DNA of 64,000 nucleotides from the NCBI GenBank assembly GCA_963752285.1, contig CAVVXN010000004.1, forward strand, positions 64,001 through 128,000, read 5' to 3'. The number at the start of each line of letters is the position of its first letter. The stretch's first letter is position 1. The stretch comes from an uncultured Planctomycetota bacterium. GTDB lineage: Bacteria > Planctomycetota > PLA2 > JAEUHO01. A program made the translations under genes and the position numbers. Of this stretch, positions 11,202-35,763 are shown one piece after another. Below the pieces are notes generated by a model that did not search any database, was not told the DNA's origin, and saw nothing but the letters and a program-made list of their open reading frames with translations.

Positions 11202-12827
11202 TCAGCGACGGCCACGACCGCGCATGGGCGTCGGTGCGAAGGGATTGGTCGTGGTCGACGTCGTCGCATTCCTGAGGATCGCGGTGACGACCTCGGTCCC
11301 GGGCGGGAGGGCCGAGGGGTCAAGAGGCTCGACGACGGTCACGGACCCGTCGGAGATGCCCGCGCGTACGCGAACGGCCTTGAGGAGCCCGTTCGGCAGC
11401 GGGACGAACACGTGGACCGCGCGCTCCGTGTTCGATGTGCGCGCGCCGGCCCGGCGACCGCGGCCGGGGCGTGCGGTGGTGCTGGCGCTCTCGCCGCCGT
11501 CCGGGCCCTCGGTCGCGTCCTTGCGCTCTCCGTCCTCCGTGCCGGCGCCGCTTCGTTCCCCGGGGACGCGGTGGACCGCGCCGCCCGGGCGCGGCACGGT
11601 CTCCGCGACGAGATCGGCGTCGGGCTGGACCCGGAGCGCGGCGGCGGGCACGTGCAGCGCGTCGCGGGCGCTCCGGGCGATCTCGAACGTGACGTTCGCG
11701 GTCATGCCGGGAAAGAGGTGGCCGTCGGGGTTCGACGCCGCGATCACGACCGTGTACGTCACCACGTTGGAGACGGTCGTCGGCGCAAGGCGCACCTGCG
11801 AGACGACGCCCTCGAACGTCTGGTCGGGGTACGCGTCCACCATGAACGAGGCGCGCTGCGTCTCCTTGATCCGGCCAATGTCGGCCTCGGGCACGGAGGC
11901 CTCGATCTGCACCTTCGTCAGGTCGCGCGCGATCTCGAAGAGCGTGGGCGCCGAGAGGCTCGCGGCCACGGTCTGGCCCACGTCCACGTTGCGCGAGACC
12001 ACCGTGCCATCCACCGGCGAGACGATCGTGGCGTAGCCGAGGTTCACCTTGTCGCTCTCGAGCTGCGCCTCGCTCTGCTTGATCGAGGCCCGAGAGACCT
12101 GGACCTGGGCCTCCGCGGCCTTGACCGCGGCGTCGGCCGACGAGCGCTGGACCTGGTCCTGCCGGAACGCGGCCTCGGCCGACGAGATCTGTGCCTCGCC
12201 CTGCGTCACCGCGGCTTCGGCCACCGCCACCTGCGCGGCGAGCGACGCTTCGGAAGCCACGGCGGCGTCGAGGTCCGACGGCGAGACGAGTCGCTTCTCG
12301 ACGAGCTGGCGCTGGCGAGCGAGGTCGGCCCGCGCCTGGACATGCAGGGCGCGGGCGCGATCGACCTCGGCCTTCGACTGCACGAGCGCAGCCTTCGCGC
12401 GTTCGACGTCCGCCTTCCCCTGCGCGATTTGCGCGTCGGCCTTGTCCACCTCGATCTTCGTCTGGTCCAGGAGCGCCTCGACGCGGGTGGCGTCGGCCTC
12501 CGCGCGGGCCTTCGCTGCCTCGTCCTGCAGGACCTGCGCGGCCAGACGACGGGCGTCGAGGATGGCGATGGTCTCGCCCTGTGTGACGTGGCCGTTGAAG
12601 TCCACGAGGAGCTTCTCGATCGTACCGGAGATCTGCGTGCCCACCTCGACGAGCTCGACTGGCTGCACGGTTCCGCTGGCCTCGATGCCCTCGACGACCT
12701 CGCCGCGCTCGGCCGGTCCCGTGCGGTACTGGATGCCGCGGAGCGCCGAGTCGCGGTCCCGGAGGACGAAGAACCAGAGCGCGCCGCCGAGCAGCACGAT
12801 CACGAGCACGACGACGAACGCCTTCAT
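11202..12827 (-). CDS. Efflux periplasmic adaptor (MacA/HlyD-like membrane fusion protein) with long coiled coil
   Basis: 3' part of ORF 11202..15557 from MKAFVVVL: TM anchor, VGTQISG, SPVDGTVVSRNVDVGQTVAASL, PGMTANV; ATG overlaps TolC stop. Confidence 0.93.
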   Translation of the reverse strand: MKAFVVVLVIVLLGGALWFFVLRDRDSALRGIQYRTGPAERGEVVEGIEASGTVQPVELVEVGTQISGTIEKLLVDFNGHVTQGETIAILDARRLAAQVLQDEAAKARAEADATRVEALLDQTKIEVDKADAQIAQGKADVERAKAALVQSKAEVDRARALHVQARADLARQRQLVEKRLVSPSDLDAAVASEASLAAQVAVAEAAVTQGEAQISSAEAAFRQDQVQRSSADAAVKAAEAQVQVSRASIKQSEAQLESDKVNLGYATIVSPVDGTVVSRNVDVGQTVAASLSAPTLFEIARDLTKVQIEASVPEADIGRIKETQRASFMVDAYPDQTFEGVVSQVRLAPTTVSNVVTYTVVIAASNPDGHLFPGMTANVTFEIARSARDALHVPAAALRVQPDADLVAETVPRPGGAVHRVPGERSGAGTEDGERKDATEGPDGGESASTTARPGRGRRAGARTSNTERAVHVFVPLPNGLLKAVRVRAGISDGSVTVVEPLDPSALPPGTEVVTAILRNATTSTTTNPFAPTPMRGRGRR

Positions 12828-14269
12828 CAGGGTGCTCCCGCGCCCGACGGCGCCCCGGGTCGCTCGACCACGCCCATGGACCGCGCGACCGCCGCGCGCG
12901 CGGCGGCGAGGTCCGCCACCGCCTGCACGGCGGCGCCGCGCGCGGCCGCGAGGCTCTGCAGCGCGTCGGCGAGCTCGACCGACGTCGCCTTGCCGACCTG
13001 GAACCGCTCCTGGGCGAGGTCCAGGGTGTCCCTGGCGCTCACGACGGCGCTGCGGGTCAGCTCGACCCGCTGGCGGGCGTCCTCGATCCCGAGCCACGCC
13101 GCGCGGAGGTCGCGCCAGGCGCCCTGCTCGGTCTGGGCGCGCGAGGCCCGCGCGGCGCGCAGGGTCGCGACGGCCTCCTCGACGGAGCACACGTTCGCGA
13201 AGCCGTCGAACGGCGTCCAGGACACGCGCGGGCCGACGCTCCAGTCCCAGGGGAAGGGCAGGTCCGATCCGCTCGCGCCGTAGCCGAAGCCGACGGACAC
13301 GCTCGGGTAGAGCCGCGCCACCTGCGCATCGACGATGGCGGACGCAGCCCTCTCGCGGGCGGCCACCGCGGCGAGAGAGGGCTGGTGCTCGCGGGCCGAG
13401 GTCCACGCCGTGTCCATCGTGTCGGGGACCGCGAGGCCGTCGTCGCCCACGCGCGTGGTCCACGCGAGCGACTCCGCGAGGCCCACGGCGGAGGCGAGGT
13501 TCGCCTGCGCGAGGCGCAACGCGTCGTGGGTCTCGACCTCGGCGACCTGGGCGTTCAGGAGGTCCACCTTCGCCTTCGTCTCGTCGTAGGGGATGCGCGT
13601 CCCGGCTTCCACGAAGCCCTGGACCTGCTCGAGCCGCGCCTCGTACTGCTTGACCGTCTCCTCGGCGACCCTCTCGAGCTGGATCTGCTTCGAGAGCTCG
13701 TAGTACGCGCTCCGGACCGCGAAGGCCGTGTCCACCTCGGCCTGCTGCTCGTCCTCCTGCGCGGCGAGCCACGCCTCGCCCGCGTTCCGTACGAGCGCGT
13801 TCGTGCGACCGAAGTCGAAGAGGAGCCAGCTCACGTCGAAGCCGTACGCGCCGAAGCGGTGGGCGCTCGACCCCGAACGCGAGCTCTGGTCGCGGTACGA
13901 CCCGGAGGCGGAGGCGGTCACCTGGGGCAGCCGATCGGCCTCGGCCTCGCAACATCGGGCGCGCGCCGCTTCGGCGTTTCGCCGCGCGCGCACCACGGCA
14001 GGCTGAATGCGGACGGCCGTGCGGACGAGCTGGTCGAGGCCCACCTCGCCTTCCTCGGGCAGCCCGACCTCTCGGGCCGTGGGGGTGCGTTCGCCCGGGA
14101 CGGCGGTGCGGAAGTCGGTCGCCGCGCGGGCCTGCGCCGCGACGGAGCAGCCGGGGAGCCCGAGCGCGAGCGTCAGCGCCGCGCCGAGGACGAGAATGGC
14201 GCACACGGGCACGAACCGACCCACTCGGCGCCCGACGGGCGCTCGCTCCGCACGCGGCCGATCCTGCAT
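12827..14269 (-). CDS. TolC-family outer membrane efflux lipoprotein
   Basis: Lipobox-like LALGLPGC, WLLFDFG, AQERFQVGKATSVEL; heads the MFP-ABC operon. Confidence 0.9.
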   Translation of the reverse strand: MQDRPRAERAPVGRRVGRFVPVCAILVLGAALTLALGLPGCSVAAQARAATDFRTAVPGERTPTAREVGLPEEGEVGLDQLVRTAVRIQPAVVRARRNAEAARARCCEAEADRLPQVTASASGSYRDQSSRSGSSAHRFGAYGFDVSWLLFDFGRTNALVRNAGEAWLAAQEDEQQAEVDTAFAVRSAYYELSKQIQLERVAEETVKQYEARLEQVQGFVEAGTRIPYDETKAKVDLLNAQVAEVETHDALRLAQANLASAVGLAESLAWTTRVGDDGLAVPDTMDTAWTSAREHQPSLAAVAARERAASAIVDAQVARLYPSVSVGFGYGASGSDLPFPWDWSVGPRVSWTPFDGFANVCSVEEAVATLRAARASRAQTEQGAWRDLRAAWLGIEDARQRVELTRSAVVSARDTLDLAQERFQVGKATSVELADALQSLAAARGAAVQAVADLAAARAAVARSMGVVERPGAPSGAGAP

Positions 14270-14954
14270 GGCGCGCCCCCAGACCGGCGTCGCCGGTCGG
14301 CCGATTGAACCCGGGCCGGAGCGCAGGAGTCGTGCGAAATCGACACCGGGGCTCACGGCGACGGAGGGGGCGCCTCGTGCGGGGGGGCGAAGGCACGGGC
14401 TCTACGTTCCCGACCCCGTTCGGCCTTCGGGGCCGGAGCGCGTCCGTTCCCGTCGCCCGGTGGGGCGTCGTCTCGACGGGTGGGGGGCGACCGGCCGCCC
14501 ACCGTCCCGAGCGTAGCCACGGAGTGCTCGATCGCGTGGGTCGCACCCGGTGCGCGTCCCCGCCCGCCGTGCACCCGAGGCCGGTCAGGACGCCGCCGAC
14601 CCCGGGCTCTGAAGAATCCGACCGCTCGACATGAACGGACCGAGCGGGCGGAAGAAGATCGTGCAGCACCCGACCGCCCCACGAACACGAAGAGCGCGAG
14701 CCCGGCGGAGCGGTTCCGGAGCGCGCCCCCCCCGACGTGCCGTGCGACGCCTCCTCCGGTCGGTGGGGGACGCCACGTTTCCGCGCCCACGGACCGCGGC
14801 CAGGACCCCGGTCGGGGGTCGGGAGGCTCGGGTCCGGCTCGGGCGGCACCCGCGCGGGGCCGGTCGGAGGCGGCCTTCCGGCGCGCCGGCACGAACGCTG
14901 CGGGGCGACGGCGCTCGTGGAAGGCGTCTCGTCTGCCCCCCTACGGAGGATGTC

Positions 14955-15370: not shown

Positions 15371-21717
<6,347 letters not shown>

Positions 21718-24251
21718 CGGATTCCCTCCGCAGCGCGCGCCGCAGGTCGTGCGGCGACGCCGGCTTGATCAGGTAGTGATCGAATCCCGCCGCGGATCCC
21801 TCGCGGCGGTCCTCCTCGCGGCCGTATCCCGTGAGCGCCACGAGCCGGGGCGCGTCGTCTCCCAGGAGCTCGTGCACACGGCGGGCGACGGCGAAGCCGT
21901 CCATCTCGGGCATCGAGATGTCCACGAGGGCCACGTCCGGTCGCTGCTCCTGGATGAGCGCCACGCCCTCCGCGCCGTTCGAGGCGACGCGGACGTCCAC
22001 GCCCCATTCCTGCAGGAGGACGGTCGTGGACAGCCGGACGTCGTTCTCGTCCTCGACGAGGACGACGCGCAGGCCCGGCTCCAGGGGAATGTCCGTATCC
22101 ACGGGGGCGGGCGCGACCTCCGCCGCCGCGGGCGCGAGGGGGAGTCGGACGACGAACTCGCTGCCGAGGTCCTCTCCCGGGCTCGCCGCCCGGACGGTCC
22201 CGCCATGCAGGGTCACGAGCTGACGGACGAGCGTGAGGCCGATTCCGAGGCCGCGCCCGTCTCCCCGCTGCTGGACGAAGATGTCGAAGACCCGCTCCAG
22301 GAGGTCGGCAGGGATCCCGCGGCCGTTGTCCGCCACGCGCACGACCGCGTCGGAGGCCTCGCGCTCGAGCACGAGGTGGATCCGGCCGCCATGCGGCGTG
22401 TAGCGCACCGCGTTGTTGAGGAGGTTGCTGACGATCTGGACCAGGCGGACCGCGTCCCCGTCCACGACGAGGGGCTCCGGCGCCACGTCCACCGCGAGCA
22501 CGTGCCGGCGTTCGTCCACGAGGTTTCGCACGCTCTCCACGGCCTGGGTCAGCGTGTTCCGCAGCTCGACCCGCTCCTTGCGGAGCACGATCTTCCCCTG
22601 GGAGATGCGCGAGACGTCGAGCAGGTCGTCCACGAGACGGACGAGGTGGCGCACCTGTCGGTCCATGCAGTCGCACAAATGCCGCTGCGAGTCCGGAGGC
22701 AGCGAGCGCCCGCGGAGGACGGCGACGCCGGTGAGGATAGGGGAGAGGGGGTTCCGCAGCTCGTGCGCGAGGACCGCGAGGAACCGGTCCTTGCGCTGGC
22801 TCTCCTCGCGAAGCGCGTCGGCCTCCCAGCGCTGGCGCTCCTCGGTCATCCTGCGCTCGAGCTCCCGCCGCTCGAGCTCGCGCAGGCGGTTGGCCTGCCG
22901 CTGGACCTCGGCGGTGCGCTCCTGGAGCTGGACGAAGACCGAAACCTTCGCGCGGAGCACCTCCGGCACGATCGGCTTGAACAGAAAGTCCACGGCGCCG
23001 AGGCGGTACCCGTGGAGGATCTCCGCGTCCTCCTGGGGATAGGCCGAGACGAAGATGATGGGAACATGGCGCGATCGGGGTCGCGAGCGGATGAGCCGGG
23101 CCGTCTCGAACCCGTCGAGCCCCGGCATGCGCACGTCGAGGAGGATCAGCGCGAAATCCCGCTGGAGCAGGGCCCGAAGCGCCGCCCGTCCCGAGTCCAC
23201 GAGCACGAGCTCTCTTCCGAGGTCTTCGAGCGTCGCCTCGATCGCCGCGAGGTTGGCCGGGTCGTCATCGACGACGAGGATGTCGCCCGATCGAGCATCG
23301 GCGCACATCTCCGCGGGGTCATAGACCCCCGGCGTCTCGCCGGTGGGCTCGGTCAAAGGCGGATCCTCCCCGGTCTGGCTCCGTCGCGGCGCGCGGCCAC
23401 GACACGCGACCGGCAGCCGCAATTCTGGTACCGGGCCGAGGGCCCGCACAATCGCGCGGCTCCGGGCCGAAAGCCCGGCAATTCGTGCCGCGTCCACGCG
23501 CACGCGGGGCGCACCGCGTGCACGACGTGCGATCGGGGAGGGGGCGCCGGCGCGGTCCCGCGGGATGTGGTGGGCCCAATGACCCGGCCGTCATCGACCT
23601 CCGCCCGGCTCACGGGTTCCGATCGCTCGGGCCGCCCCGTCCGGAGGCGTGCGTCGCCCGGCGCGGCGCCGCGCGGCCGCCGAGGAAGGTGCGGTCGGGT
23701 CCCGGCGGACCCGACCGCGGCGCAGCATCTTCGAACTCCACACCGACTCACTGACATCGGTCATCGGACATCCATTTCATCTTCGCGTCGTTCACCCCGC
23801 GTCCGGTGACGCACAGTACGGATCCATCTCCACCCAACGCGCACGAACGACCTCACTTCGGTTGCTGTGGCCGACGCTCGGGGGTCGATCCCAGGTTCGG
23901 CCCTTTACCGACGAGAGCCCCGCCCAAGCAACGTCCGGGCCAATGGCGTCCGCCCCGCCCGCGCCGCGAGCTCACGCGAGGACGCGGGGGGCCCGCGCCC
24001 GCCCGGAACCCCCGGGAGAGCACGATGCGCATCGGCGGCTGCACCCTTCGTGCAGTCGCTGCACGCGCGCTTCAAGTCGCGGAGGCGGGTCGATGGCCCC
24101 CGAAGCCGAGAGCGGGGGCCGGTCTCCGCGCCGTGCGCACGTCGAGGCACGCACCTTGCGGTTGCCGGCCGACCGCATCGGCGCCGAGCGTAGTCGTTGG
24201 GCCGGGGAGCGTTCCGATGCCGCATCCTCCCGGCGTGCTGGAGCGTGAATC

Positions 24252-25907
24252 ATGAGATGTCGAACTGGATGGATGATCTTCGCCGCGTCGCTGCTCACAT
24301 GGGCGGCGGTCCCGGCGTTCGCGGACGACGCGCCCGCGGGACCGAACCCCGCCGCGACGGCAGGGCCGGCTTCGGTCTCGACGACGGTCGATGCGAACGA
24401 CCAGATCGGTCCGCCCCCTGCCGTGCCCTCGCAGCCGTTCGAGGACTCGGGGGCGTCGCGGAGCCCCAACCCCGCCGCGGCCGAGGACGAGCCGTCCTCG
24501 GAGAACCTGCCCGGCGACGACCAGGGCGAGAACCCGAACGAAGGCCGGCTGCCCGAGGGTCAGGAACCCGAAAGGGAGCAGCCCGCGGACCAGACGCCGC
24601 AGGGCCAGGCCGGGACGGGTGAGGTCCCGCTCTGCGGTGGGTGCATGTCCCGGCAGCCCGTGGGGGGATGCGCGTCCGTCACGTGCGCGCCCACGTGCAG
24701 CCAGCCGCGCTGCGCCTACGTACCCTGTCACTACGAGACCCGGAGCCGCGAGGTGACGTGCCCGGCCGTGACGTGCCAGCGTCGCGTCCCCGAGTACGAG
24801 AACGTCGAGGTGCCCGTCTACCAGAAGGTCTGCACACCCTGCTACCAGAACGTGGAGATCCCCGTGTACGCCACGCGGGAGGTTCCCGTCTACACGACGC
24901 GCAAGGTGCCGGAGTACGAGAACGTGGAGGTCGCGTGCTACGCGACGCGCCAGGTTCCCGTCTACACCACGCGGAAGGTGCCGGAGTACGAGAACGTGGA
25001 GGTCGCGTGCTACGCGACGCGCCAGGTTCCCATCTACACCACGCGGAAGGTGCCGGAATTCCAGAACGTGGAGATCCCCGTCTACGCGACGCGTTGCATC
25101 CCCGAGTACGAGAACGTCGAGGTCCCCGTCTACGCGACGCGGTGCGTCCCGACCTACTGCGACGTCGAGGTGCCCGAGTACGACACGCGGCAGGTGCCGA
25201 TCACCCGCGCCGTCTGCGATCCCTGCACGGGCCAGACGAGCGAGGTGGCGTGCGGCATGCGGACCGAGACGTACCAGTGCGGCACGCACACCGAGAAGCG
25301 GGTGTCCGGTCAGCGCACGGAGACCTTTACGTGTTCGACGAGGACGGAGCGTCGCCTCAAGGGGCAGCGCACCGAGACGTACCAGTGCGGCACGCGGACG
25401 GAGCGTCGCTGCTCGGGCTACCGTGACGAGCAGGTCCTTTGCGGATACCGCCCCGAGCGCTACCAGTCCGGCACGCGTACCGAACAGCGCTTCAAGGACT
25501 ACCGGTCCGAGCAGGTCCTCTGCGGCTACCGGCCCGAGCAGTACCAGTCGGGCACGCGCACCGAGAAGCGCCTCACGGGCTACCGCTCGGAGCAGGTCCA
25601 GTGCGGCACGCGCCGGGAGTGCTACCAGAACGGAACCCGCACGGAGCAGCGCCAGGTCGGCACCCGGACTGAGGTCGTGTGCACCGGCTCCCGCACCGAA
25701 CGCCGCCTGTCGGGCTACCGGACCGAGGAGGTGACCGTGCGCCCCGCGTCCACGCGGACCGTCCAGGAGCCGGTGATGGTCGCCGGCGGCTGGGTCACGG
25801 TCGTCCCCGAGGGACGGACCGACGGCGTGAGCCCGCTCCCCGGCACCCGGAAGGTCCTCTCCCAGACCGAGTTCGAGCAGGTGACCCTTAGCGTTCCGGC
25901 GCGGTAG
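24252..25907 (+). CDS. Secreted Cys/Tyr/Thr/Val-rich repeat protein (YTV-like), predicted giant beta-hairpin
   Basis: Signal peptide (AFA-DD), acidic linker, 8-aa PxYxxxxV repeats, CDPCTG turn, 9-aa GxRxExxxx repeats. Confidence 0.85.
   Translation: MRCRTGWMIFAASLLTWAAVPAFADDAPAGPNPAATAGPASVSTTVDANDQIGPPPAVPSQPFEDSGASRSPNPAAAEDEPSSENLPGDDQGENPNEGRLPEGQEPEREQPADQTPQGQAGTGEVPLCGGCMSRQPVGGCASVTCAPTCSQPRCAYVPCHYETRSREVTCPAVTCQRRVPEYENVEVPVYQKVCTPCYQNVEIPVYATREVPVYTTRKVPEYENVEVACYATRQVPVYTTRKVPEYENVEVACYATRQVPIYTTRKVPEFQNVEIPVYATRCIPEYENVEVPVYATRCVPTYCDVEVPEYDTRQVPITRAVCDPCTGQTSEVACGMRTETYQCGTHTEKRVSGQRTETFTCSTRTERRLKGQRTETYQCGTRTERRCSGYRDEQVLCGYRPERYQSGTRTEQRFKDYRSEQVLCGYRPEQYQSGTRTEKRLTGYRSEQVQCGTRRECYQNGTRTEQRQVGTRTEVVCTGSRTERRLSGYRTEEVTVRPASTRTVQEPVMVAGGWVTVVPEGRTDGVSPLPGTRKVLSQTEFEQVTLSVPAR
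24880..25600. repeat. Intragenic tandem duplications (72-bp units in outgoing arm, 81-bp units in returning arm)
   Basis: gttcccgtctacac..aaggtgccggagtacgagaacgtggaggtcgcgtgctacgcgacgcgccag twice; gagcaggtcct..tgcgg.taccg.cccgag..taccagtc.ggcacgcg.accga twice. Confidence 0.8.
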
Positions 25908-25993
25908 GGATGCCTTCCCGAAGGTGAGAGCGGGCCGCGGGCCTGTGGCTCGCGGCCCGCTCTCCTGCCCGCACCCGCTTTCCGGAGGTTTCC

Positions 25994-26485
25994 ATGCGCA
26001 TTCTCCAGAGACACTCGCCCCGAGACCGAAGCGCGGGCGACCGCGCCGCGAGCCGAGACTGGTGCGAGTGCCTCGAGGGCGTCGTGCACGCGAGCCTCGA
26101 GATCTCCCAGGCCCGGGTCCTCCTCGCCGCGGGCGAGTCCGACGAGGACCTCCGCGGCACGACGATGCGCAGGGCGCTCGAGGAGCGAGGCTGGGCCGAG
26201 GCGCTCCACCGCGAGGCGGGGGCGTTCCTCGCGCGCGGACCCCGCGCGGTCCGCCCGCTCGCCGTGCGACCCAGCGCCCGCCGGATGCGACGTGCCCTGC
26301 TCGCCGGGGACCCCATCCTGCTCGAGCGTGCGCTCGCGGTCGACGTGCGACGACTCGCGCACGGCTGCCGCCGATTGCTCCGGAGGCTCGACACCCCGGA
26401 GTCCGTCCGGCGTCTCCTCGCGCAGCGCGTCGCCGACCTCGACGACCTGGAGACCGGCCGACTGCCACCGTCCCGGGCGGGATGA
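25994..26485 (+). CDS. Hypothetical helical protein, possibly a degenerate ferritin-like (DUF2383-like) four-helix bundle
   Basis: GGAGG SD; amphipathic helices (RRALEERGWAEAL, PESVRRLLAQRVADL); family call weak. Confidence 0.5.
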   Translation: MRILQRHSPRDRSAGDRAASRDWCECLEGVVHASLEISQARVLLAAGESDEDLRGTTMRRALEERGWAEALHREAGAFLARGPRAVRPLAVRPSARRMRRALLAGDPILLERALAVDVRRLAHGCRRLLRRLDTPESVRRLLAQRVADLDDLETGRLPPSRAG

Positions 26486-26530
26486 CGGGCGCGCGGGCAC
26501 ACGACCCGGCGCCGCCGAGCGGACGCCTCC

Positions 26531-26797
26531 TCAGAACCGGAAGCGCCCCCAGCGCCAGGATCCCAGGTCGAGGACGACCGCGAGGACCATCACGAGCAGC
26601 CAGAAGCTCCCGTGGACCCCGCCGGCGGTATTGACGGCCACCGCGTACGCGAGCGTCGTGGTCGGCGCGACGACGAACCCGACGAGCGGGAGGAGCAGGC
26701 CCGTGTAGACGCGCGCCAGGTAGCTCGTGAACAACGCGAGCACGATCAGCACCGCGCGCGGGGCCAGGAGTCCGATGATCGCGAGGAGAATGGGCAT
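26531..26797 (-). CDS. Small integral membrane hypothetical protein
   Basis: 88 aa, three hydrophobic helices, P-R..L and GF..P.TTL.Y pattern; GGAG SD. Confidence 0.75.
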   Translation of the reverse strand: MPILLAIIGLLAPRAVLIVLALFTSYLARVYTGLLLPLVGFVVAPTTTLAYAVAVNTAGGVHGSFWLLVMVLAVVLDLGSWRWGRFRF

Positions 26798-27140
26798 GTG
26801 CGCTCCGGCTGGGGATTGCCCGACTGCGGCGAGCCGCGTGCCACGTCCGGCCGCGACCGAGGAGCCTGGAGGACAAAGGTCGCGCGGGAGCGCAGGACCC
26901 TAGTCCCCCAGCGCCCCGAGACCCATCCTCCGTTCCCAGGCCCGGAACGCGTTCCCGTTCGGACGGCGCGCTCGGCGGTGGGGAGTCGTCCGGTTCCCGA
27001 CGGTTCGCGTCCCGGCTAGGATTCCGGTGCCGGGAGTTCGGTTTGGCACCCGCCTCGCTCGTGGCCGATCGCTCGGGGGCGAGGCAGGACGCCGTAGCGT
27101 CCCGGCGAGAAAATGACACCCGCGAACGGAGCGGGTGACG

Positions 27141-29114
27141 ATGTCACCCGAGGAGAGGCCCATCGAACCCGGAGCGTCGCTCCCGCTGGACGCCCACGCG
27201 TGGCACGTGGTGGAGGCGGTCGTCGCTTCGGTGACCGACTACGCGGTGTTCGTGCTCGACCCTCAAGGCCACGTGCTCACGTGGAACGCCGGCGCGGAAC
27301 GAATGAAGGGATACACGCGGTCCGAGATCCTCGGGTCCCACTTCTCGCGCTTCTACCCGCCGCCGGAGAAGGCGCGCCGCGTCCCCGACCACGAGCTCGA
27401 GGTCGCAGCCCGCGAGGGCCGGTTCGAGGACGAGGGCTGGCGGCTCCGCAAGGACGGGTCGGCCTTCTGGGCGAGCGTCGTCATCACCGCGATCCGCGAC
27501 GAACGCGGCGCGCTCGCGGGGTACCTGAAGATCACTCGGGACCTCACGGCTCGTCGCGCCCAGGAACAGGCCCTCGCGGAGAGCGAGGAGCGGTTCCGGC
27601 TCCTCCTCGAGGGCGTGGCCGACTACGCGATCTACATGATCGACGTGGACGGTCGCGTGATGAGCTGGAACTCCGGGGCGGAGCGCATCAAGGGCTACTC
27701 CGCCCACGAGGTCCTCGGCCGCAACTGGTCGATGTTTCATCCGCCCGAGGCGGTGGAGGCCGGCCAGCCGGAGGACATCGTCGAGCAGGCGCGGGTGGTC
27801 GGGCGGGCTGAGGACGAGGGCTGGCGCATGCGCCGCGACGGCACGCGGTTCTGGGCGAGCTCCATCCTGACGCGACTCCTCGACGGGGGCGGCCGGCTCC
27901 GCGGGTTCGCCGAGGTCACGCGCGATTTGACCGAGCGGCGGCGGGCGAAGGCCCTCGAGGAATCCGGTCGCCGCACGAACGAGTTCCTCGCCATGCTGTC
28001 GCACGAGCTCCGAAACCCGATGGCGCCCATCCGAAACGCCGTGGCGCTGATGGCCGAGCGGGAGGTCTCCGACCCCATGATCGCGTGGGCGTGCGAGGTG
28101 ATCGAGCGACAGACGCAACTCCTCGGCCGGCTCGTGGACGACCTGCTGGACATCAGCCGCGTGACGCTCGGGAAGATCCGGCTGGAACGCGTCGGGCTCG
28201 ACCTCGTCGAGGTCGCGAGGAGCGCGGTGGAGACGGTACGCCCCCTCGTCGAGACGCACCGCCACCGGCTGGAGGTGATCCTGCCCCCCGAACCCCTCTT
28301 CGTGCTCGGGGACGGGACCCGGCTCGTCCAGGCGGTGGTGAACCTGCTCACGAACGCCGCGAAGTACACGCCCGACGGCGGAGAGGTCCGCCTGACGGTG
28401 GCGCAGGAGGGGAGCGACGCGGTGCTGCGCGTGCGGGACACGGGTGTCGGGATGTCCCGCGACCAGATCGCGCGCGCGTTCGACCTCTTCGTGCAGGGGG
28501 ACCGGAGCCTCGACCGGACCGACGGCGGCCTCGGGGTCGGCCTCACGCTGTCGCGCCGACTGGTCGAGATGCATGGTGGCACCCTGCTCGCCTCGAGCGA
28601 CGGGCCCGGCACGGGGACGGAGTTCACGATTTGGCTTCCGCTTGCCGAAGTCGAGGCGTCCACGTCCGGCGCTTCGGCGGCCGGCGCCGGGGCGCCGGCC
28701 GCCGACAGCCCGGCGGGTGGTGGTGCGTGCGCGCTCTCCGGGCGTGTGCTCGTCGTGGACGACAACGAGGACGCCGCCGAGAGCACGGCGATGCTGCTCC
28801 GCATGTGGGGCCTCGAGGTCGAGACCGCGCACGACGGGGTCCAGGGACTCCAGCTCGCCGCGAGCTTCAAACCGCGATACGTGATGCTCGACCTGGGCCT
28901 GCCGCGTATGGACGGCTACGAGGTCGCACGTCGCATTCGGCAGACGCCCGGGCTCGGGGAGAACGTCCTGCTCGTCGCGCTGACGGGCTACGGCCAGCCC
29001 GAGGACCTCGAAGGCACGCGCCGGGCGGGGTTCGACCACCATCTCACGAAGCCGGTGGACCCGGAGCTTCTCCAGCGGCTGCTGCTCGACGCGGGCGGCG
29101 TGCCGACCGCGTGA
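27141..29114 (+). CDS. PAS-PAS hybrid sensor histidine kinase / response regulator
   Basis: Two DYA..D..G....WN.GAER.KGY PAS units with EDEGWR.R.DG..FWA, SHELRNP, GGLGVGL, C-terminal receiver. Confidence 0.93.
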   Translation: MSPEERPIEPGASLPLDAHAWHVVEAVVASVTDYAVFVLDPQGHVLTWNAGAERMKGYTRSEILGSHFSRFYPPPEKARRVPDHELEVAAREGRFEDEGWRLRKDGSAFWASVVITAIRDERGALAGYLKITRDLTARRAQEQALAESEERFRLLLEGVADYAIYMIDVDGRVMSWNSGAERIKGYSAHEVLGRNWSMFHPPEAVEAGQPEDIVEQARVVGRAEDEGWRMRRDGTRFWASSILTRLLDGGGRLRGFAEVTRDLTERRRAKALEESGRRTNEFLAMLSHELRNPMAPIRNAVALMAEREVSDPMIAWACEVIERQTQLLGRLVDDLLDISRVTLGKIRLERVGLDLVEVARSAVETVRPLVETHRHRLEVILPPEPLFVLGDGTRLVQAVVNLLTNAAKYTPDGGEVRLTVAQEGSDAVLRVRDTGVGMSRDQIARAFDLFVQGDRSLDRTDGGLGVGLTLSRRLVEMHGGTLLASSDGPGTGTEFTIWLPLAEVEASTSGASAAGAGAPAADSPAGGGACALSGRVLVVDDNEDAAESTAMLLRMWGLEVETAHDGVQGLQLAASFKPRYVMLDLGLPRMDGYEVARRIRQTPGLGENVLLVALTGYGQPEDLEGTRRAGFDHHLTKPVDPELLQRLLLDAGGVPTA

Positions 29115-30505: not shown

Positions 30506-31324
30506 ATGCCGACGGATCCGGAGCTCCTCTACCGGCTCGCCCCGCGGGACGAGTCCGCCTTCGACGCGCTCGTCGCGCGTCACGCCGGGGCGGCCCGGCG
30601 ACGCGCGGAGGAGCTGCGCCTCTCGCTCGCGGGGCACGTCGCGCGCGATCCGTCGGTGCTGACGCGCGTCCTGGCGCACGCCCCGGTCTTCGGTCTCGCG
30701 CTCCTGTCGCGGTCCAAGGCCGGGCGGCAGGAGGTCGAGCGTCTGGCCGAGGGACGGGTGGACGCGCCCGACGGGTTCGTCACGAAGGCGGGCCTCGGCC
30801 GTGCGCTCTTGGCCCTCGCCCAGCGGGCCGGCGCGCGCGCGGCGCTGGACGCCGCGGACCGGCTGCTCGCGCCGGGCCTCGAGGTCGCGCGGGGCTCCGG
30901 GGCGTCGATCTCGCCCTTCGCCGACGCGTGGCTCGACGCGCCGGAGGACGAGGGCGAGGCGTCACTCCTGGAACGGATCGAGTCCTCGCGCGCGTTCGAG
31001 GACGACCTACTCGGTCCCCAGCTCCTGGCGGTCCTGAGCGGCGCGCGAGGGACCCCCGGGTGGCTGCTCGGGTTCCTCCGGCCGCCCGTGGACCGGCTCC
31101 TCGCCGCGGGTTCGATGCGCGCGGCCTTGGCCGAGGTCGCGTGGGAGCTCGCCGAGCGCACCTACGAGGCGAAGCGCGCCGCGCTCCCGACGAGCTACGG
31201 AGTGCGGTCGCGAGCCGCGCGCTCGAGGCGACCCGGCGTCGTGTTCGCGCAGGCGGCCTCGTCCGGCGAGTCCGACCCGCTCCGGGACCCCTGGACCCGG
31301 CTCTTCGTCGGGCTCCCCGAGTGA
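30506..31324 (+). CDS. Hypothetical protein with ECF sigma-like N-terminal fragment
   Basis: GGAGGG SD; MPTDPELL...DESAFDALVARH resembles the start of ECF sigma region 2, but the rest is unrelated helical sequence. Confidence 0.55.
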   Translation: MPTDPELLYRLAPRDESAFDALVARHAGAARRRAEELRLSLAGHVARDPSVLTRVLAHAPVFGLALLSRSKAGRQEVERLAEGRVDAPDGFVTKAGLGRALLALAQRAGARAALDAADRLLAPGLEVARGSGASISPFADAWLDAPEDEGEASLLERIESSRAFEDDLLGPQLLAVLSGARGTPGWLLGFLRPPVDRLLAAGSMRAALAEVAWELAERTYEAKRAALPTSYGVRSRAARSRRPGVVFAQAASSGESDPLRDPWTRLFVGLPE

Positions 31325-31341
31325 GCGGTATGGTCCATGCC

Positions 31342-32748
31342 GTGGGAAGGAAGTCGAATCGCCGGCTCGCCGTGATCGTCCTCGCGCTGATCGGCGTGGG
31401 CTTGATCGCCCTGGACCCGTTCGGCCTCCGGTCCGGGCCCGCCGTCCGCGGCGCCGACCCGGCGCGCCAGGCCCGGGCGGGGACCCGGGACCCCTCGCTC
31501 GTCGGGCAGGGCGAGACGGTCGTGCGTCCCGGCCCCGAAACGCCGCACGCGCCCTCGGCTCCCTCCAGAGCCGCCGACCCGACTCCGCACGCGGCCGACG
31601 CGCCGCCGCTCGCGGATCGGCGCAACGCGCCCGGCGCCGACGCGACGACGCCGCCCGACGTGCTCGAAGGGACGCTCTTCGACGGGGACGCGCCGATCGG
31701 CGAGGGGACGGGGCTCCTCTGGCGCGGCCAAAACGCGACCACCGCCGGGAGCATCCCGGTGGGCGACGAGCCCCAAGAGCGCGCGCTCGTCACGCGGGAC
31801 GGGCTCATCCGGTTCGCCGGCCTCGAGGCCGGGCCCTGGTACCTCGGCGTGGACCTCGGCGACGGCGTCCAGCGGCTCGCCTACCTCCAGCGAACGACCG
31901 GGGTGACCGACAACCCGCGGATCCTCCTCGGCCTCGGGCACGCGGCGGTCGCCGGCACGGTGTGGGGCGAGGACGGCGCGCCCGTCGTTGGCGCGGTCGT
32001 CCGGGTCGGTCCCGCCGTCGCGTCCGTCCGCGGCGTGCTCCTCGCCCAGACGAAGACGGACCGCGACGGGGTGTACGAGATCCGCCGGCTCTCCGCGGGC
32101 CCCGCCTGGGTCACCTTCGCGCTGACGGGCGACCTCGACGACGAGACGACGACCCACCACCGCCGCGTCGCGCTGGAGGAGGGACGCGTCACGACGCTCG
32201 ACTTCGGGACGGCCCGAGGTCTCGTGGCGTTCCAGGGGACGGTCCGGTGCGAGGACGGGACCGCCGTGACGGGCGGGGGGCAGATCATCCTCTCGACGAA
32301 GCAGCCGAGCGGGTTCCTGATCGTCCGCTTCGACGCGGAGGGCCACTACGTGCAGCGGGTCGCCGAGGGGGTCTACGACGTGTCGATCTGGCCGCCTGGC
32401 GCCTCCGGCCTCGAGGCCTACCGTCGCGAGACGCCGCTCTCCCTCTCGGGCACGCAGGTGAACGAGGACCTCGTGCTGCCCGGCGCCCGGATCGTCGGAG
32501 CCCTCGACCCCGTGCCCGCCGGTCCGGCCACGACGTACCTCCGGGTCCAGCGGAAGGCCGACGCCGCGGGAGCGGTCCGGCCGGGGTCGGGTCGCTCGGT
32601 GGCCGTGGGCGAGGACGGCCGCTACGCCGTGTTCGGCCTCGCGCCCGGGACGTACGTGGTCGAGACCGGTCCGCGCCGCGCCGAGCCCGCGAACGTCGAG
32701 ATCGTGGAGGGGCAGGCGGAGGCGCGGGTGGACCTCCGACTCGAATAG
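31342..32748 (+). CDS. Membrane-anchored carboxypeptidase-regulatory-like (beta-sandwich) domain protein
   Basis: N-terminal TM, Pro-rich linker, repeated G.V..EDG.PV.GA.V / TD.DG.Y....L..G.Y units; start 31321, 31330 or 31342. Confidence 0.8.
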   Translation: MGRKSNRRLAVIVLALIGVGLIALDPFGLRSGPAVRGADPARQARAGTRDPSLVGQGETVVRPGPETPHAPSAPSRAADPTPHAADAPPLADRRNAPGADATTPPDVLEGTLFDGDAPIGEGTGLLWRGQNATTAGSIPVGDEPQERALVTRDGLIRFAGLEAGPWYLGVDLGDGVQRLAYLQRTTGVTDNPRILLGLGHAAVAGTVWGEDGAPVVGAVVRVGPAVASVRGVLLAQTKTDRDGVYEIRRLSAGPAWVTFALTGDLDDETTTHHRRVALEEGRVTTLDFGTARGLVAFQGTVRCEDGTAVTGGGQIILSTKQPSGFLIVRFDAEGHYVQRVAEGVYDVSIWPPGASGLEAYRRETPLSLSGTQVNEDLVLPGARIVGALDPVPAGPATTYLRVQRKADAAGAVRPGSGRSVAVGEDGRYAVFGLAPGTYVVETGPRRAEPANVEIVEGQAEARVDLRLE

Positions 32749-32861
32749 GCGCCGCGCGGTCCACGATAGGCTCGGTGGTCGCCCCGGAGAAGCGCCATGG
32801 CTCGTGCGGCGTCTCCAGGGAGCGCGGGGCCGGCACGTCCGGTAGGAGATAGAGTCGCGGG

Positions 32862-34598
32862 GTGAGCTCGACGGGAGGGCGGATGCGGCGTCGGCGGGCC
32901 TGGGGACGGCCTCTCTTCCTCGTCCTCGGCGTCGGCGTGGCCCTCGCATCGACGAGCGGGCGGACGGCGTGCGCCGAGGACTCCGTGGACGCGGCCTACC
33001 GGGCGCTGCTCGACGCCTGGAAGCAGAAGCGATACGGCGAGGTCGCCCGGGACGCGCACCGCTTCCTCGAAGCGCATCCCGACTTCCGGTACGCGGCCGC
33101 CGTCGAGTACCTGGGGGGGAACGCGGCCCTCGAGGTCCAGTCGTGGGAGGTCGCCGAGCGGTTCTACCGCCGGCTGGTCCGGGAACATCCCGACGACAAG
33201 AGGGCCGGCGAGGCGCGGAACGAGCTCGTGACGGTCTTCGATCGCACGGGCCGGTACGAGGCGTGCCTCGCGCAGTGTCGGGAGAACCTGGCTCTCTACC
33301 CAGGCTCGCCACGCACGCGGCGCTGGCGGTTCGAGGCGGGCCGGTCGCTGTTCCGGCTCTGGCGATTCGACGAGGCGAAGCGTGAGATCGAGGCGCTCCT
33401 CGCGGAGCATCCCGGTAGACCCTGGGAAGAGCGGGCCCGAGCGCTCCTCGACCGCATCGAGCCCGTGCTCGACGCCGACGACAGCGGGGCCGTGGGCGGG
33501 TACGACGGCAAGTACGTGGAAGACGTGCGGTTCCAGAGAGAGGCCGCGCGCCTGCCCGATCTCGTGGACGAGGCCTGGAAGCGACTCGACGTGGCGCTCG
33601 GGCTCCGGCCGGGCGTTCGACCTCGCGTGCTCTTCACCTTCGAGGACGCGCGTCCAGGCGCGGGCGGCGGGGTCGAGGGACGAACCGACACCGTGGCGAT
33701 CGAGGGCAAGCCGGCGGTGCGGATCCACCTCGTCACGGAGTACGTGGTGCTCTCGCCCGAGGACTACGAGACCCGTGTGTGCCACGAGATGACGCATGCC
33801 GCGCTGCGGGCCGCGATGGGACGCTCGTACGACGCCCTGCCCGCCTGGGTGCGCGAAGGACTCGCGGTCTACGCCGCCGGGCAGATGGACGACCGCGTCG
33901 CGGCGATCGTGAGCAACCAGGTCTTCACGGGGAAGCCCCTCGCCGGACTCGTGAACGGCCTGGAGACGCGGCGGCACGACTTCGTCGACTACCTGGAGGA
34001 CGTCCTCGCGTTCGACTGGCTGGAGGGCCGAAGGCGGGGCGCCGTCCGCGACTTCACCGCGCGGCTGCTCGGCGGCGAGGACCACCAGGCGGCGTTCTCG
34101 GCCGCGTCGGACCTGCCCTTCGACGAGGCGGTGCGTGCGGCGGAACAGCACGCCCGCGAACGGGTGAACGAGGTGGTTGGAGACGACGGCCGCGCGTACG
34201 AGAGGATCCGCGCCCGCCTGTTCGCCGCCGCGAAGGCGGGGCGCCTCGTGGCCTGGCTCCAGGGCCCCGACGCCGTGTGGCTCCGCTCGTTCGTCGTGGC
34301 CCGGCCGCGCCACGCGCTCGCGCCGAACGCGCGGTACCGCCTCGGTCGCGCCCTCGTGGAGACGGGACACGGCGCCGAGGGGCGGCCCATGCTCCAGCAC
34401 GTCGTGGACGTGGACCTCGCGCGAACCTCGATCGCGGACGACGCGGCCTACTGGATCGCCCGGTCGTACGAGAAGGACGGCGACGCGACGAAGGCGCGCG
34501 AGGCCTGGTCCGTGTTCCTTCGCGATTTCGCGTGGGCGCGCCAGACCAAGGAGGCGCCGCCCGACGTGAAGCCCGCCGGCCCGCTCCGCGCGCCCTGA
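32862..34598 (+). CDS. Secreted TPR + gluzincin (peptidase MA-like) protein
   Basis: Signal peptide, BamD-like TPRs (F...HP, LVREHP), HEMTH plus PAWVREGLA third-ligand motif, C-terminal TPR. Confidence 0.8.
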   Translation: MSSTGGRMRRRRAWGRPLFLVLGVGVALASTSGRTACAEDSVDAAYRALLDAWKQKRYGEVARDAHRFLEAHPDFRYAAAVEYLGGNAALEVQSWEVAERFYRRLVREHPDDKRAGEARNELVTVFDRTGRYEACLAQCRENLALYPGSPRTRRWRFEAGRSLFRLWRFDEAKREIEALLAEHPGRPWEERARALLDRIEPVLDADDSGAVGGYDGKYVEDVRFQREAARLPDLVDEAWKRLDVALGLRPGVRPRVLFTFEDARPGAGGGVEGRTDTVAIEGKPAVRIHLVTEYVVLSPEDYETRVCHEMTHAALRAAMGRSYDALPAWVREGLAVYAAGQMDDRVAAIVSNQVFTGKPLAGLVNGLETRRHDFVDYLEDVLAFDWLEGRRRGAVRDFTARLLGGEDHQAAFSAASDLPFDEAVRAAEQHARERVNEVVGDDGRAYERIRARLFAAAKAGRLVAWLQGPDAVWLRSFVVARPRHALAPNARYRLGRALVETGHGAEGRPMLQHVVDVDLARTSIADDAAYWIARSYEKDGDATKAREAWSVFLRDFAWARQTKEAPPDVKPAGPLRAP

Positions 34599-34773
34599 GG
34601 CCGACCGGGCGGCGAAGCCGGCGCGGTCGCACACCTCGCCTCGGCCTCCCGGGTCCGCGAGAGGGCCGCGCCGAGCGAACCGACGTCTCCCGGACGGCGC
34701 CCGGACCGCCGACACGTCGCCAACGCGTACGCCCCCGGGCGGTACGATGGGCGGGTCGATCCCGGGGGAGGAG

Positions 34774-35763
34774 ATGGACCGCGGCGCCGCGCGCTCGAAT
34801 CGTCGGGGATGGCCGCCCGCCGTGGGGGGCGCTCTCCTGCTGGCGCTCGTAGTCGTCGGCGGCCGGGCGGTCGCGCACCAGGACGCCGTCGAGGCGCCTC
34901 GCGTTCGGGGATGGCGCACGCCGGCCCCCCCCGAGCACGCGGTGGACGTCGTGTTCGTGGGCGACGGATACCAGAAGAAGCATCTGTCGCCGAGCGGGAA
35001 GTACTGGACCGACGTCAATCGCTACGCGAAGCGGTTCCTCGAGGAGCCGCCGATGTCCTGGTACCGCGACTCCATCAACGTGTGGGCGGTGTTCCTGGAG
35101 TCGAAGGACGCCGGCGTGGACGGCGACACGGCGCTCGGGTGTCACTTCATCGACGACCGTCGCGTCGTGTTCCGGAACGAGAAGGCGGTCCGCGCGGCCG
35201 TGTCCCTCGTCCCGAGCGCCGACATCGCCCTCGTCATGGTCAACGTCGAGCGCTCGGGCGGCTGCGGCACCGTCCTCTCGCCCCTCGATCGCGGCGACCC
35301 GTACTTTCCCGCGCCGACCTTCTCCGCGCAGGACACGTCGTCGTTCGACATCGCGCTCCACGAGCTCGGCCACAGCTTCGCGGGGCTGGCCGACGAGTAC
35401 GCCGACTCGACCGTCGCGGACGAGTTCCCGCTACCGAAGGACGGGAAGGATCTCGACTTCCCGAACGTGACCCTGGCGTCCGTCCTCGACGCGACCAGCC
35501 CCGAGACGATCCGCAAGACCGCGAAGTGGGCCCGCTTCCTCGACTGGAAGGGTGCCGACCACTGGACGTGGGCGTACGAGGGGGGGTACTTCCGCGAGCA
35601 CGGGGTGTACCGGCCGTTCCCACGCTGCAAGATGCGGGACCGTGGCGAGCCGTTCTGCCCCCTCTGTTGCGCAACGTTCGCGCAGGCCATCTGCAAGACC
35701 GCCGGCATCGACTTCGACGAGGCGGGGTACGCGCGGAAGCACCCGCTGCAGCTCTGGCGATAG
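34774..35763 (+). CDS. Peptidase M64 (IgA peptidase-like) family protein
   Basis: VFVGDGY, HELGHSFAGLADEY, YEGG, YRP...CKM....FCPLC; GGAGG SD. Confidence 0.88.
   Translation: MDRGAARSNRRGWPPAVGGALLLALVVVGGRAVAHQDAVEAPRVRGWRTPAPPEHAVDVVFVGDGYQKKHLSPSGKYWTDVNRYAKRFLEEPPMSWYRDSINVWAVFLESKDAGVDGDTALGCHFIDDRRVVFRNEKAVRAAVSLVPSADIALVMVNVERSGGCGTVLSPLDRGDPYFPAPTFSAQDTSSFDIALHELGHSFAGLADEYADSTVADEFPLPKDGKDLDFPNVTLASVLDATSPETIRKTAKWARFLDWKGADHWTWAYEGGYFREHGVYRPFPRCKMRDRGEPFCPLCCATFAQAICKTAGIDFDEAGYARKHPLQLWR

Follow-up and report, generated by a model that had tools for sequence, protein, structure and literature searches.

A gene in a 64,000-nucleotide stretch of DNA from an uncultured Planctomycetota bacterium (contig CAVVXN010000004.1, positions 64,001 to 128,000 of the forward strand, here termed the window and numbered from its first letter) encodes a protein that is likely exported and whose two unlike repeat arrays, arm A and arm B, are predicted to pair with each other in antiparallel orientation, one unit against one, as the strands of a single very long β-hairpin rod. 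In the proposed arrangement arm A, built of 8-residue units (PVYETREV), would run ~150 residues outward from the base, the chain would reverse at the far tip through a tight turn capable of forming a disulfide (C-DPCTG-...C), and arm B, built of 9-residue units (GTRTERVQV), would run back to the base. Eight residues of arm A would face nine of arm B, with one residue of each B unit, presumably the glycine, bulging out. Both chain ends would lie at the base together with a Cys/Pro-rich segment, a conserved C-terminal domain and an acidic flexible linker, and the base may be fixed in the envelope with the bare tip projecting from it. With a β-strand rise of ~0.33 nm per residue, the length of roughly 50 nm proposed in the initial annotation is probably a fair straight-line value for ~150 residues per arm; the tip would stand at this distance from the base if the ribbon were straight, and twist or coiling could shorten it.

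Organization of the Repeat Protein

The coding sequence P0001 (24252-25907, forward strand) comprises 551 amino acids plus the stop codon and has a GC content at third codon positions (GC3) of 0.92. All the segments described here lie on the forward strand. The predicted signal peptide (amino acids 1-24, 24252-24323), judged by eye, begins with MRCRTGW, continues with a hydrophobic core and ends at AFA/DD, and the N termini of the homologs are also signal-like or transmembrane. It leads into an acidic linker rich in Pro, Glu, Gln and Gly (amino acids 25-122, 24324-24617), which by composition carries a net charge of -16 and no cysteine, and then into a Cys/Pro-rich base segment (amino acids 123-171, 24618-24764), with eight cysteines in residues 123-172 and short strands at the base formed by its last ~20 residues.

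Arm A (amino acids 172-321, 24765-25214) consists of a degenerate unit A0 (AVTCQRRV), 17 in-phase 8-residue units of the pattern P/A-x-Y/F-x-x-x-x-V/I/T (amino acids 180-315, the first at nucleotide 24789) and the half-unit PITRAV (amino acids 316-321). The family consensus over 905 units is P-V-Y-E-T-R-E-V, and the arm has a net charge of -4. The turn region (amino acids 322-334, 25215-25253; CDPCTGQTSEVAC) holds three cysteines and starts with CDPCTG at residue 322, nucleotide 25215; together with PITRAV it forms a 19-residue tip segment that is conserved within the subfamily. Arm B (amino acids 335-496, 25254-25739) is composed of 18 in-phase 9-residue units of the pattern G/S/D-x-R/H-x-E-x-x-x-x, with a family consensus of G-T-R-T-E-R-V-Q-V over 832 units and a net charge of +12. 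The 17 and 18 units, PITRAV and the CDPCTG turn all stand in the translation of the open reading frame exactly where, and as often as, the initial annotation had placed them. In the consensus, charged residues occur on both alternating sides of each strand (E4, R6 and E7 in arm A; R3, E5 and R6 in arm B). The chain ends in a conserved C-terminal base domain (amino acids 497-551, 25740-25904), for which the family alignment gives the consensus RPAxTRxV...VTVV...PLPGT...TExE, and the mature chain contains 28 cysteines in total. The PLPGT within this domain (25830-25850, approximately residues 528-532) is conserved in the alignments and resembles a sorting motif but is not LPXTG.

Mirror Order of the Repeat Units

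The units of the two arms, counted outward from the turn, match one to one in the manner first proposed for this protein, and each of the three pairing classes then named is borne out. With unit A(i) placed opposite unit B(18-i), acidic units of the xNVEV/DVEV type lie opposite units of the GTRTE(R/K/Q)R type in seven of seven cases, PxYTTRKV lies opposite G/DYRxEQVxC in three of three, and ACYATRQV opposite GYRPExYQS in two of two. Because period-3 arrays can match each other in many registers, the unit-similarity matrices of arms A and B were correlated (Mantel) under 32 mappings, 16 antiparallel and 16 parallel. The A(i)-B(18-i) mapping gives r = 0.644, the highest of the 32, and is followed by the parallel mapping c = 3 (0.52) and the antiparallel mapping c = 19 (0.34). 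When the order of the B units is permuted 20,000 times no permutation reaches 0.644, the maximum being 0.49. So close a mirror correspondence of unit types lies far outside what chance would give.

At the level of DNA, Tandem Repeats Finder identifies on the forward strand a three-unit array of 72 nucleotides in arm A (24843-25093, 3.5 copies, 90% matches), an array of 48 nucleotides (25063-25190, 2.7 copies, 81% matches) and a three-unit array of 81 nucleotides in arm B (25368-25652, 3.5 copies, 76% matches). The two-unit period of 54 nucleotides in arm B near the turn is visible as one pair at 62% and in the protein units only, and is not reported by the program. The repeat search gives no inverted DNA repeat between arms A and B, and the symmetry therefore exists only at the protein level.

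A simple register may be derived from the turn in the AlphaFold2 model (C/DPCTGx/T), in which position a of an A unit would lie opposite position 10-a of a B unit with the glycine as the extra residue. The cross-strand pairs would then be A7 (E/R/K/Q) with B3 (R/K), A4 (E/G/A/R) with B6 (R/K/Q), A3 (Tyr) with B7 (V/Y/R) and A8 (Val) with B2 (T/Y/W). Such a register fits the acidic A units facing basic B units and the opposite net charges of the two arms.

Arm Lengths among Relatives

A word-indexed search retrieves 36 relatives of the protein, and an exhaustive phmmer search retrieves 340 at E ≤ 1e-3, 87 at E ≤ 1e-10 and 13 at E ≤ 1e-30. The phmmer matches examined are the best 150 of the 340, and tiling was applied to 180 proteins, namely 177 library proteins and three paralogs. 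Both unit types were represented by position-specific matrices with which all 180 sequences were tiled. Both arms are found in 105 proteins (82 with arm A first and 23 with arm B first), arm A only in 14 and arm B only in 10, and the 51 with neither arm are low-identity compositional matches.

Among the 82 A-first proteins the arm lengths correlate with a Pearson r of 0.80 and a slope of 0.97 residue per residue. The 23 B-first proteins give r = -0.07, which becomes 0.72 (n = 22) on removal of P0046, a protein of 4166 amino acids with an A array of 39 units; both orders pooled without P0046 give r = 0.79 (n = 104). The tiling gives between 3 and 20 units per arm; the two arms are no more than one unit apart in 54 of these 104 proteins and no more than two apart in 82. 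The mean |nB-nA| is 2.0 compared with 3.95 in permutations, none of 10,000 of which reaches 2.0. Tiling is noisy at the array ends, and a stricter count steps in exact phase from the conserved 19-residue turn. By this count the arms are equal in 18 of 24 proteins (5/5, 6/6, 11/11, 13/13, 14/14 and 18/18), one unit apart in four, and four units apart in two in which the phase is broken by an indel. The 24 proteins are relatives and not independent, and one appears to duplicate another; the six length classes each show equality. The co-variation of arm counts among homologs, a consequence drawn from the hairpin when the gene was first annotated, is thus found in both counts, and the two arm lengths are not independent.

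Four proteins with a single arm, P0038, P0058, P0154 and P0167, were considered as counterexamples to pairing and rejected as unrelated low-complexity repeat proteins. They carry single 8- or 9-residue arrays (VEVPRIQT, GTRHDMVQA, PEFEVPEI and GEFPVFPS), and some are eukaryote-like. Most of the other matches with one arm are fragments of 98-262 amino acids, as judged by length only, to the exclusion of P0045, P0091, P0098, P0127, P0151 and P0164, which are long. Single-array look-alikes drawn in by repeat composition are a caution for any model of the family.

Architecture Variants

In 23 Bacillota-like membrane-anchored proteins the order is reversed, with the B arm followed by an insert of 50-100 amino acids and then the A arm; the assignment to Bacillota comes from Atlas clusters in which the taxa are known for few members only. 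A link of seven amino acids joins B to A in P0104 (9 and 10 units) and P0153 (6 and 6 units), and P0108 has 5/5 units with an 18-residue link. Whole domains are found between the arms of two further proteins. In P0115 a complete VWA domain (PF00092, 54.7 bits, E 1.9e-14, residues 192-376) separates 10 A units on its N-terminal side from nine in-phase B units. P0026 has a YSIRK-type signal, its N terminus matching the signal model TIGR01168 with 25.4 bits against a cut-off of 20.2, followed by ~12 B units, an insert of 349 amino acids and ~12-13 A units; the insert matches the SEC10/PgrA model TIGR04320 with 66.8 bits (E 2.1e-18; cut-off 70).

Matched arms that can stand in either order, and that can be joined by a tight turn as well as by an entire domain, are as expected of a stalk with self-pairing arms; a globular domain set between arms that match is the arrangement that a stalk demands. 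The hairpin would then be a modular stalk, bare at the tip in some relatives and in others capped by a small domain, a VWA domain or a PgrA-like surface-exclusion domain. The variants, as read from their sequences, are the strongest evidence for paired arms that is independent of AlphaFold. If the hairpin is formed, the window protein could serve as a rigid extracytoplasmic spacer or rod, a role that is given somewhat less than an even chance.

Predicted Structure

Structures were predicted with AlphaFold2 for the homolog P0002 (344 amino acids) and for residues 120-551 of the window protein, each with an alignment of 64 rows. The P0002 model has a mean predicted local distance difference test (pLDDT) score of 83.0, with 84-93 in the arm blocks, and a predicted template modeling score (pTM) of 0.33. 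It contains an uninterrupted strand of 94 residues (83-176) and an uninterrupted strand of 106 residues (183-288), with the loop DPCTGE between the strand end at Cys-176 and the strand start at Thr-183, and a base to which the N- and C-terminal flanks contribute short strands and a helix. The ratio of the strand lengths, 94/106, is 0.887 compared with 0.889 for 8/9, from which one glycine bulge per unit is plausible in the model.

The window-protein model has a mean pLDDT of 66.9 and a pTM of 0.31; the low pTM of both models is expected for a rod. Its confident strands comprise residues 173-229 (57 residues, A0-A6, pLDDT 84-91) and 434-497 (64 residues, B12-B18, pLDDT 84-93), with a length ratio of 0.89. 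These are exactly the partners given by the A(i)-B(18-i) rule and correspond to seven unit pairs at the base. At the tip, strands at residues 316-322 and 329-336 are placed around DPCTGQ with moderate confidence. The base is well defined, with strands at residues 153-157 and 160-170 (block pLDDT 88-91) and, in the C-terminal base domain, strands at residues 500-510 and 513-518 and a helix at residues 538-547 (pLDDT 88-93); residues 120-148 are below 50. The arms are β-strands in both models, and the only helices are the short C-terminal helix and the signal peptide. The initial annotation had described an antiparallel two-stranded ribbon centered on DPCTG with eight residues facing nine, and this agrees with the AlphaFold2 models, with the co-variation of arm lengths and with the domains between the arms. 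The fold, for which a solenoid or a disordered chain had been named as the contrary outcomes, is predicted as neither, with hairpin strands on either side of DPCTG.

Alternative Arrangements

Several observations weigh against the interpretation as a single hairpin. The pairing of the strands is not seen directly; it is deduced from the strands that DSSP assigns in the models, from how long these are and from the lack of another strand with which either could pair. In the window-protein model 144 of 432 residues have a pLDDT below 50, those in the middle being residues 247-301, 340-373 and 405-430. The aligned relatives possess 5-14 unit pairs compared with 18 in the window protein, so the middle of the latter meets gaps, which is probably why it is weakly predicted. 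The automated unit counts are more than two apart in 22 of the 104 proteins. Position-by-position covariation was tried as support and set aside: at equal n the mutual information of paired-unit positions is 15.5 in the true register, 9.6 in parallel and 7.6 ± 0.25 in within-protein shuffles, but shifted registers also reach 13-14 because orthologous positions are shared, and the measure is confounded by shared ancestry. No pattern of Cys-Cys pairs across the strands fits the simple register. The only enriched pair is Cys2 of an A unit with Cys9 of the previous B unit (both in 9 cases, A only in 6, B only in 36), which would be ~7 residues apart and which comes from duplicated units that are not independent. 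In the simple register the cysteines of one arm do not face those of the other, and intramolecular ladder disulfides are therefore not indicated; cross-linking of the protein into an envelope mesh, suggested at first annotation, is not supported. The PDB searches yield no solved isolated hairpin of comparable length, and the pore hairpins among the weak structural neighbors (VIA Z scores of 3.2 for lysenin, 3.1 for PA and 2.9 for Ib) occur inside oligomeric barrels. The genes next to the hairpin gene encode two-component sensors without evident link to a role of the hairpin protein.

The paired triple-unit duplications also differ in DNA divergence. Between the youngest copies in arm A, A5-7 and A8-10, 2 of 72 nucleotides are changed, both synonymously, compared with 15 of 81 nucleotides (seven synonymous and six non-synonymous codons) between B11-13 and B8-10, which mirror them in arm B. 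Compensating duplications may have occurred at different times, or arm A may have been homogenized since. The proposal that the arms expanded in concert accordingly stands for the number and position of the units and fails for their age.

There is a real if minor chance that the hairpin is formed but is only the protomer of a larger assembly, such as a long β-barrel tube, a multi-stranded sheet or a fiber built from hairpins set edge to edge or face to face, possibly with inter-chain disulfides, so that an oligomeric filament or mesh would be the functional form. The faint solved look-alikes are all hairpins within oligomeric barrels, the searches give no precedent for a two-stranded ribbon standing alone with 150 residues in each strand, stripes of conserved Val and Tyr run along both faces of the ribbon besides the charges, and the arm cysteines, among the 28 of the mature protein, are not paired across the ladder and so would be free for inter-chain bonds. 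The arms are, on the other hand, highly charged and lack the amphipathic alternation typical of barrel stems. Proline residues and β-bulges are classical features that protect the edges of sheets against association with further strands, and Richardson and Richardson reportedly described in 2002 the devices that block such edge-to-edge association; the proline in each A unit and the glycine bulge in each B unit would do so here and argue for a free ribbon, without proving it. A homodimer prediction with two copies of P0002 residues 60-344 scores 0.00 in both runs, which were made without controls, and bears neither way.

Pairing of the arms between molecules is improbable. Each chain would lend its arm A to arm B of a neighboring chain, giving domain-swapped dimers or head-to-tail polymers, with the same A:B interface and the same selection for equal arm lengths, but the tight six-residue turn flanked by cysteines is conserved and AlphaFold2 closes the hairpin within one P0002 chain. 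The termini of VWA domains are adjacent, and a VWA domain inserted between the arms favors an intramolecular return of the chain. It is very improbable that the protein is a low-complexity repeat protein, disordered or of another fold, for which the hairpin is an artefact of AlphaFold. Repetitive sequences can mislead structure predictors, and the pTM values of 0.31-0.33 and the weak middle of the window-protein model would suit such an explanation; a low pTM is nonetheless to be expected of a rod, and several observations are counted as independent of AlphaFold, namely the mirror order, the equality of the in-phase counts from 5 up to 18 units, the strand-length ratio of 8/9 and the variants with swapped arms or an inserted domain. 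Least probable of all is a divergent member of the planctomycete YTV family of cysteine-rich cell-wall proteins, which are likewise Cys-rich, exported and built of two unlike repeat halves but are distinct in profile and in distribution, as compared below.

The hairpin rod, well supported by the predicted structures and by the comparison of relatives, remains the preferred interpretation. If the prediction holds, it represents a novel construction for long rigid rods, distinct from a coiled coil, a series of tandem globular domains and a helix/polyproline hybrid. The hairpin would be tens of nanometers long with its length set digitally by the number of unit pairs. For structural biology the question would be how a core-less two-stranded sheet stays folded and soluble, and for protein design the hairpin would offer a programmable ruler or spacer with ~2.7 nm per unit. 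For molecular evolution, two arrays of one gene would have to change copy number together at mirrored positions, with paired duplications of differing age. A bolder reading, to which slightly less than an even chance is given, is that this is the longest single β-hairpin known, a monomeric core-less ribbon with ~150 residues per strand, compensatory duplications at mirror positions and a hitherto unrecognized stalk module, found in either chain order and both with and without a tip domain, that Planctomycetota and Bacillota share. Only the cross-strand pairs between 8-residue and 9-residue repeats would then stabilize the ribbon, and the proline edge and the glycine bulge would prevent aggregation. 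It would represent a new class of fold and also of repeat co-evolution, namely intramolecular co-evolution of repeat number.

Paralogs, Distribution, and Genomic Setting

The genome of origin (4.64 Mb in 5 contigs, 89% complete) encodes three paralogs of the hairpin protein outside the window. The first (L002 1489-2679, reverse strand, contig 2) has 13/13 in-phase units and the same CDPCTG turn, the second (L005 865-1857, forward strand, contig 1) has ~8/8-9 units and a larger turn of ~27 amino acids (PVEIDLWNPFGCDD...), and the third (L007 1372-1923, forward strand, contig 5) is small and diverged with ~5/5 units. The four proteins form a length series inside one genome, and the paralogs, with 13, ~8 and ~5 unit pairs, would be rods of other lengths; four paralogs of different length in one genome are of interest for the envelope biology of the poorly known Planctomycetota. 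Among 30 related genomes a match is present in 15 of 18 from the same family, in none of 11 from the sister family and not in the one other genome. Of 81 genomes sampled evenly across the phylum, two only contain matches at E ≤ 1e-8, this genome and one of the same family (f1). The only name on any relative is "hypothetical protein, Planctomycetota bacterium", and the homolog so labeled appears identical to a gene of a same-family genome. A pattern search of genome contigs with the single protein gives 55 matches with no relative among them. Tandem clusters of three to four genes of the hairpin family occur in related genomes (G004:C220 2549-7398, G015:C3 60950-63840 and G016:C6 95705-98339), and one match in G016:C6 holds two in-frame TAG stops.

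A GGAG on the forward strand (24240-24243), 8 nucleotides 5' of the ATG, may be the ribosome-binding site, and a consensus scan of 23400-26600 finds no sigma-70-like promoter and no intrinsic terminator. An antisense open reading frame of 1015 amino acids (24072-27119, reverse strand) spans the entire hairpin gene; it is absent from the set of reading frames with GC3 ≥ 0.85 and is most likely an artefact of high GC content. Public sequencing runs give four partial DNA matches to the gene, all from one soil-metagenome study, with contigs of 102-427 nucleotides that cover parts of the gene without indels or joints, and no RNA dataset containing the gene is listed in this search.

Hybrid sensor kinases are encoded on either side of the hairpin gene (21578-23503, reverse strand, and 27135-29114, forward strand), and the flanking set includes a PAS sensor kinase. 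At 19060-21717 (reverse strand) an 884-residue protein has seven to eight consecutive HAMP domains (HAMP_2, 250 bits, eight stretches), and the gene for a small HAMP protein (18160-18774, reverse strand) adjoins it. Genes for a CarboxypepD_reg-domain protein, a TPR/Peptidase_MA_2-like protein and an M64-family peptidase lie downstream (30928-35763, forward strand), and an outer-membrane efflux protein (OEP) is encoded at 12827-14356 (reverse strand).

Comparison with Known Systems

The protein is best placed with the known two-armed stalks or rods of bacterial surface proteins, and the searched libraries and papers contain no description of its family and no solved analogue of it. The window protein has no Pfam or NCBIfam match at E ≤ 10 above cut-off, the only sub-threshold chance matches in Pfam being OB_MalK, Transposase_20 and PSI_PsaF, and the family has no model in either collection. 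Among the papers listed by full-text searches of the literature, none deals with it. Foldseek against the PDB gives nothing at E ≤ 0.001 (lysenin at E 0.067, with a template modeling score of 0.08), the VIA structure search of 48161 representative chains gives no Z ≥ 5 (best 3.4), and a profile search of PDB sequences gives four matches at chance level (E 0.019-0.61). The faint structural neighbors are hairpins of oligomeric pores, phage tail parts, HU-like arms and the B-repeats of Aap. The only long hairpins among them are those of the β-pore-forming toxins lysenin, anthrax PA and iota Ib (Foldseek E 0.0078-1). The stems of β-pores, including aerolysin, are hairpins only inside heptameric to nonameric barrels, with 20-50 residues per strand and an amphipathic membrane-spanning part, whereas the predicted strands of the hairpin protein are 94-150 residues long, charged throughout, built of repeats and without a hydrophobic membrane-spanning face.

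The YTV proteins, to which the initial annotation had linked the gene, resemble the hairpin protein in being Cys-rich, repeat-built, exported and from Planctomycetota, but they differ in repeat periods, show no sequence or profile similarity and belong to another family in the phylum sample. The YTV model (PF07639, 43 positions, 21 bits) has no match at E ≤ 10 in the window protein and none in its own genome, and an hhalign comparison of the hairpin-family alignment with four YTV proteins gives a probability of 6% over five aligned columns. In the sample of 81 genomes YTV proteins are present in three, all of family f5, compared with two of family f1 for the hairpin family; these three matches show that the YTV model is able to detect such proteins. 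YTV clusters are the nearest in the ESM Atlas feature search (scores 0.84-0.85, below the 0.9 line and so a lead only), and this lead was dropped on the Pfam scan, the genome scan and the hhalign comparison. According to PMC8567305, YTV proteins are present in cell-wall preparations and are confined to Planctomycetales. Such a confinement fits the non-overlap of YTV proteins and the hairpin family in the sampled genomes. The YTV proteins L017-L020, from three genomes of another family, have an N-terminal half of the YTV/RPV type, a Cys/Pro-rich middle and a C-terminal half of the KVP/CRMV type, and YTV proteins might be built on a similar two-arm principle despite the lack of sequence similarity.

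The likeness to the VPV repeats of articulins and alveolins, proteins of the cortical skeletons of protists, also drawn at first annotation, does not hold up, as the eukaryote-like matches are unrelated arrays with one arm only. Both have short repeats with Val and Pro, as in the 8-residue VEVPRIQT-type arrays of P0058, but these matches have a single array without a partner arm, whereas the window protein has a signal-like N terminus and two partnered arrays and no related Pfam match. Such matches are treated as compositional look-alikes.

Closer functional parallels are found among surface stalks. In PrgA of enterococcal conjugative plasmids an antiparallel α-helical coiled-coil stalk holds a globular domain far from the cell. 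Both chain ends of PrgA/Sec10 (TIGR04320) lie at the base of the stalk as they do in the hairpin model, and a PgrA-like domain lies between the arms of P0026; the arms of the hairpin protein, however, are predicted β-strands of two repeat types, and the window protein has no tip domain and no NCBIfam match to TIGR04320 at E ≤ 10. The staphylococcal proteins SasG and Aap, with G5-E repeats, form surface rods of ~50 nm from core-less β-sheet with a length that varies with repeat number, and they consist of tandem three-stranded modules joined head to tail with the termini at opposite ends. In the hairpin model, by contrast, a single uninterrupted hairpin of two strands brings both termini to the same end, and the structural match to Aap (8deo_B) is weak, with a VIA Z of 2.3 over 50 residues and no G5 match in Pfam. 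The nearest precedent for a stalk of unlike repeats is the Antigen I/II group of streptococcal adhesins (SpaP, SspB and AspA), in which the unlike A and P repeat regions pair one to one in matched numbers below a tip domain, an α-helix lying against a polyproline-II helix with repeats of 82 and 39 residues. The Antigen I/II models of Pfam (alanine-rich repeats, proline-rich repeats and V domain) have no match at E ≤ 10, and the likeness is of function only: two unlike arrays are paired one to one in both, with the hairpin protein predicted to pair strand with strand through units of 8 and 9 residues.

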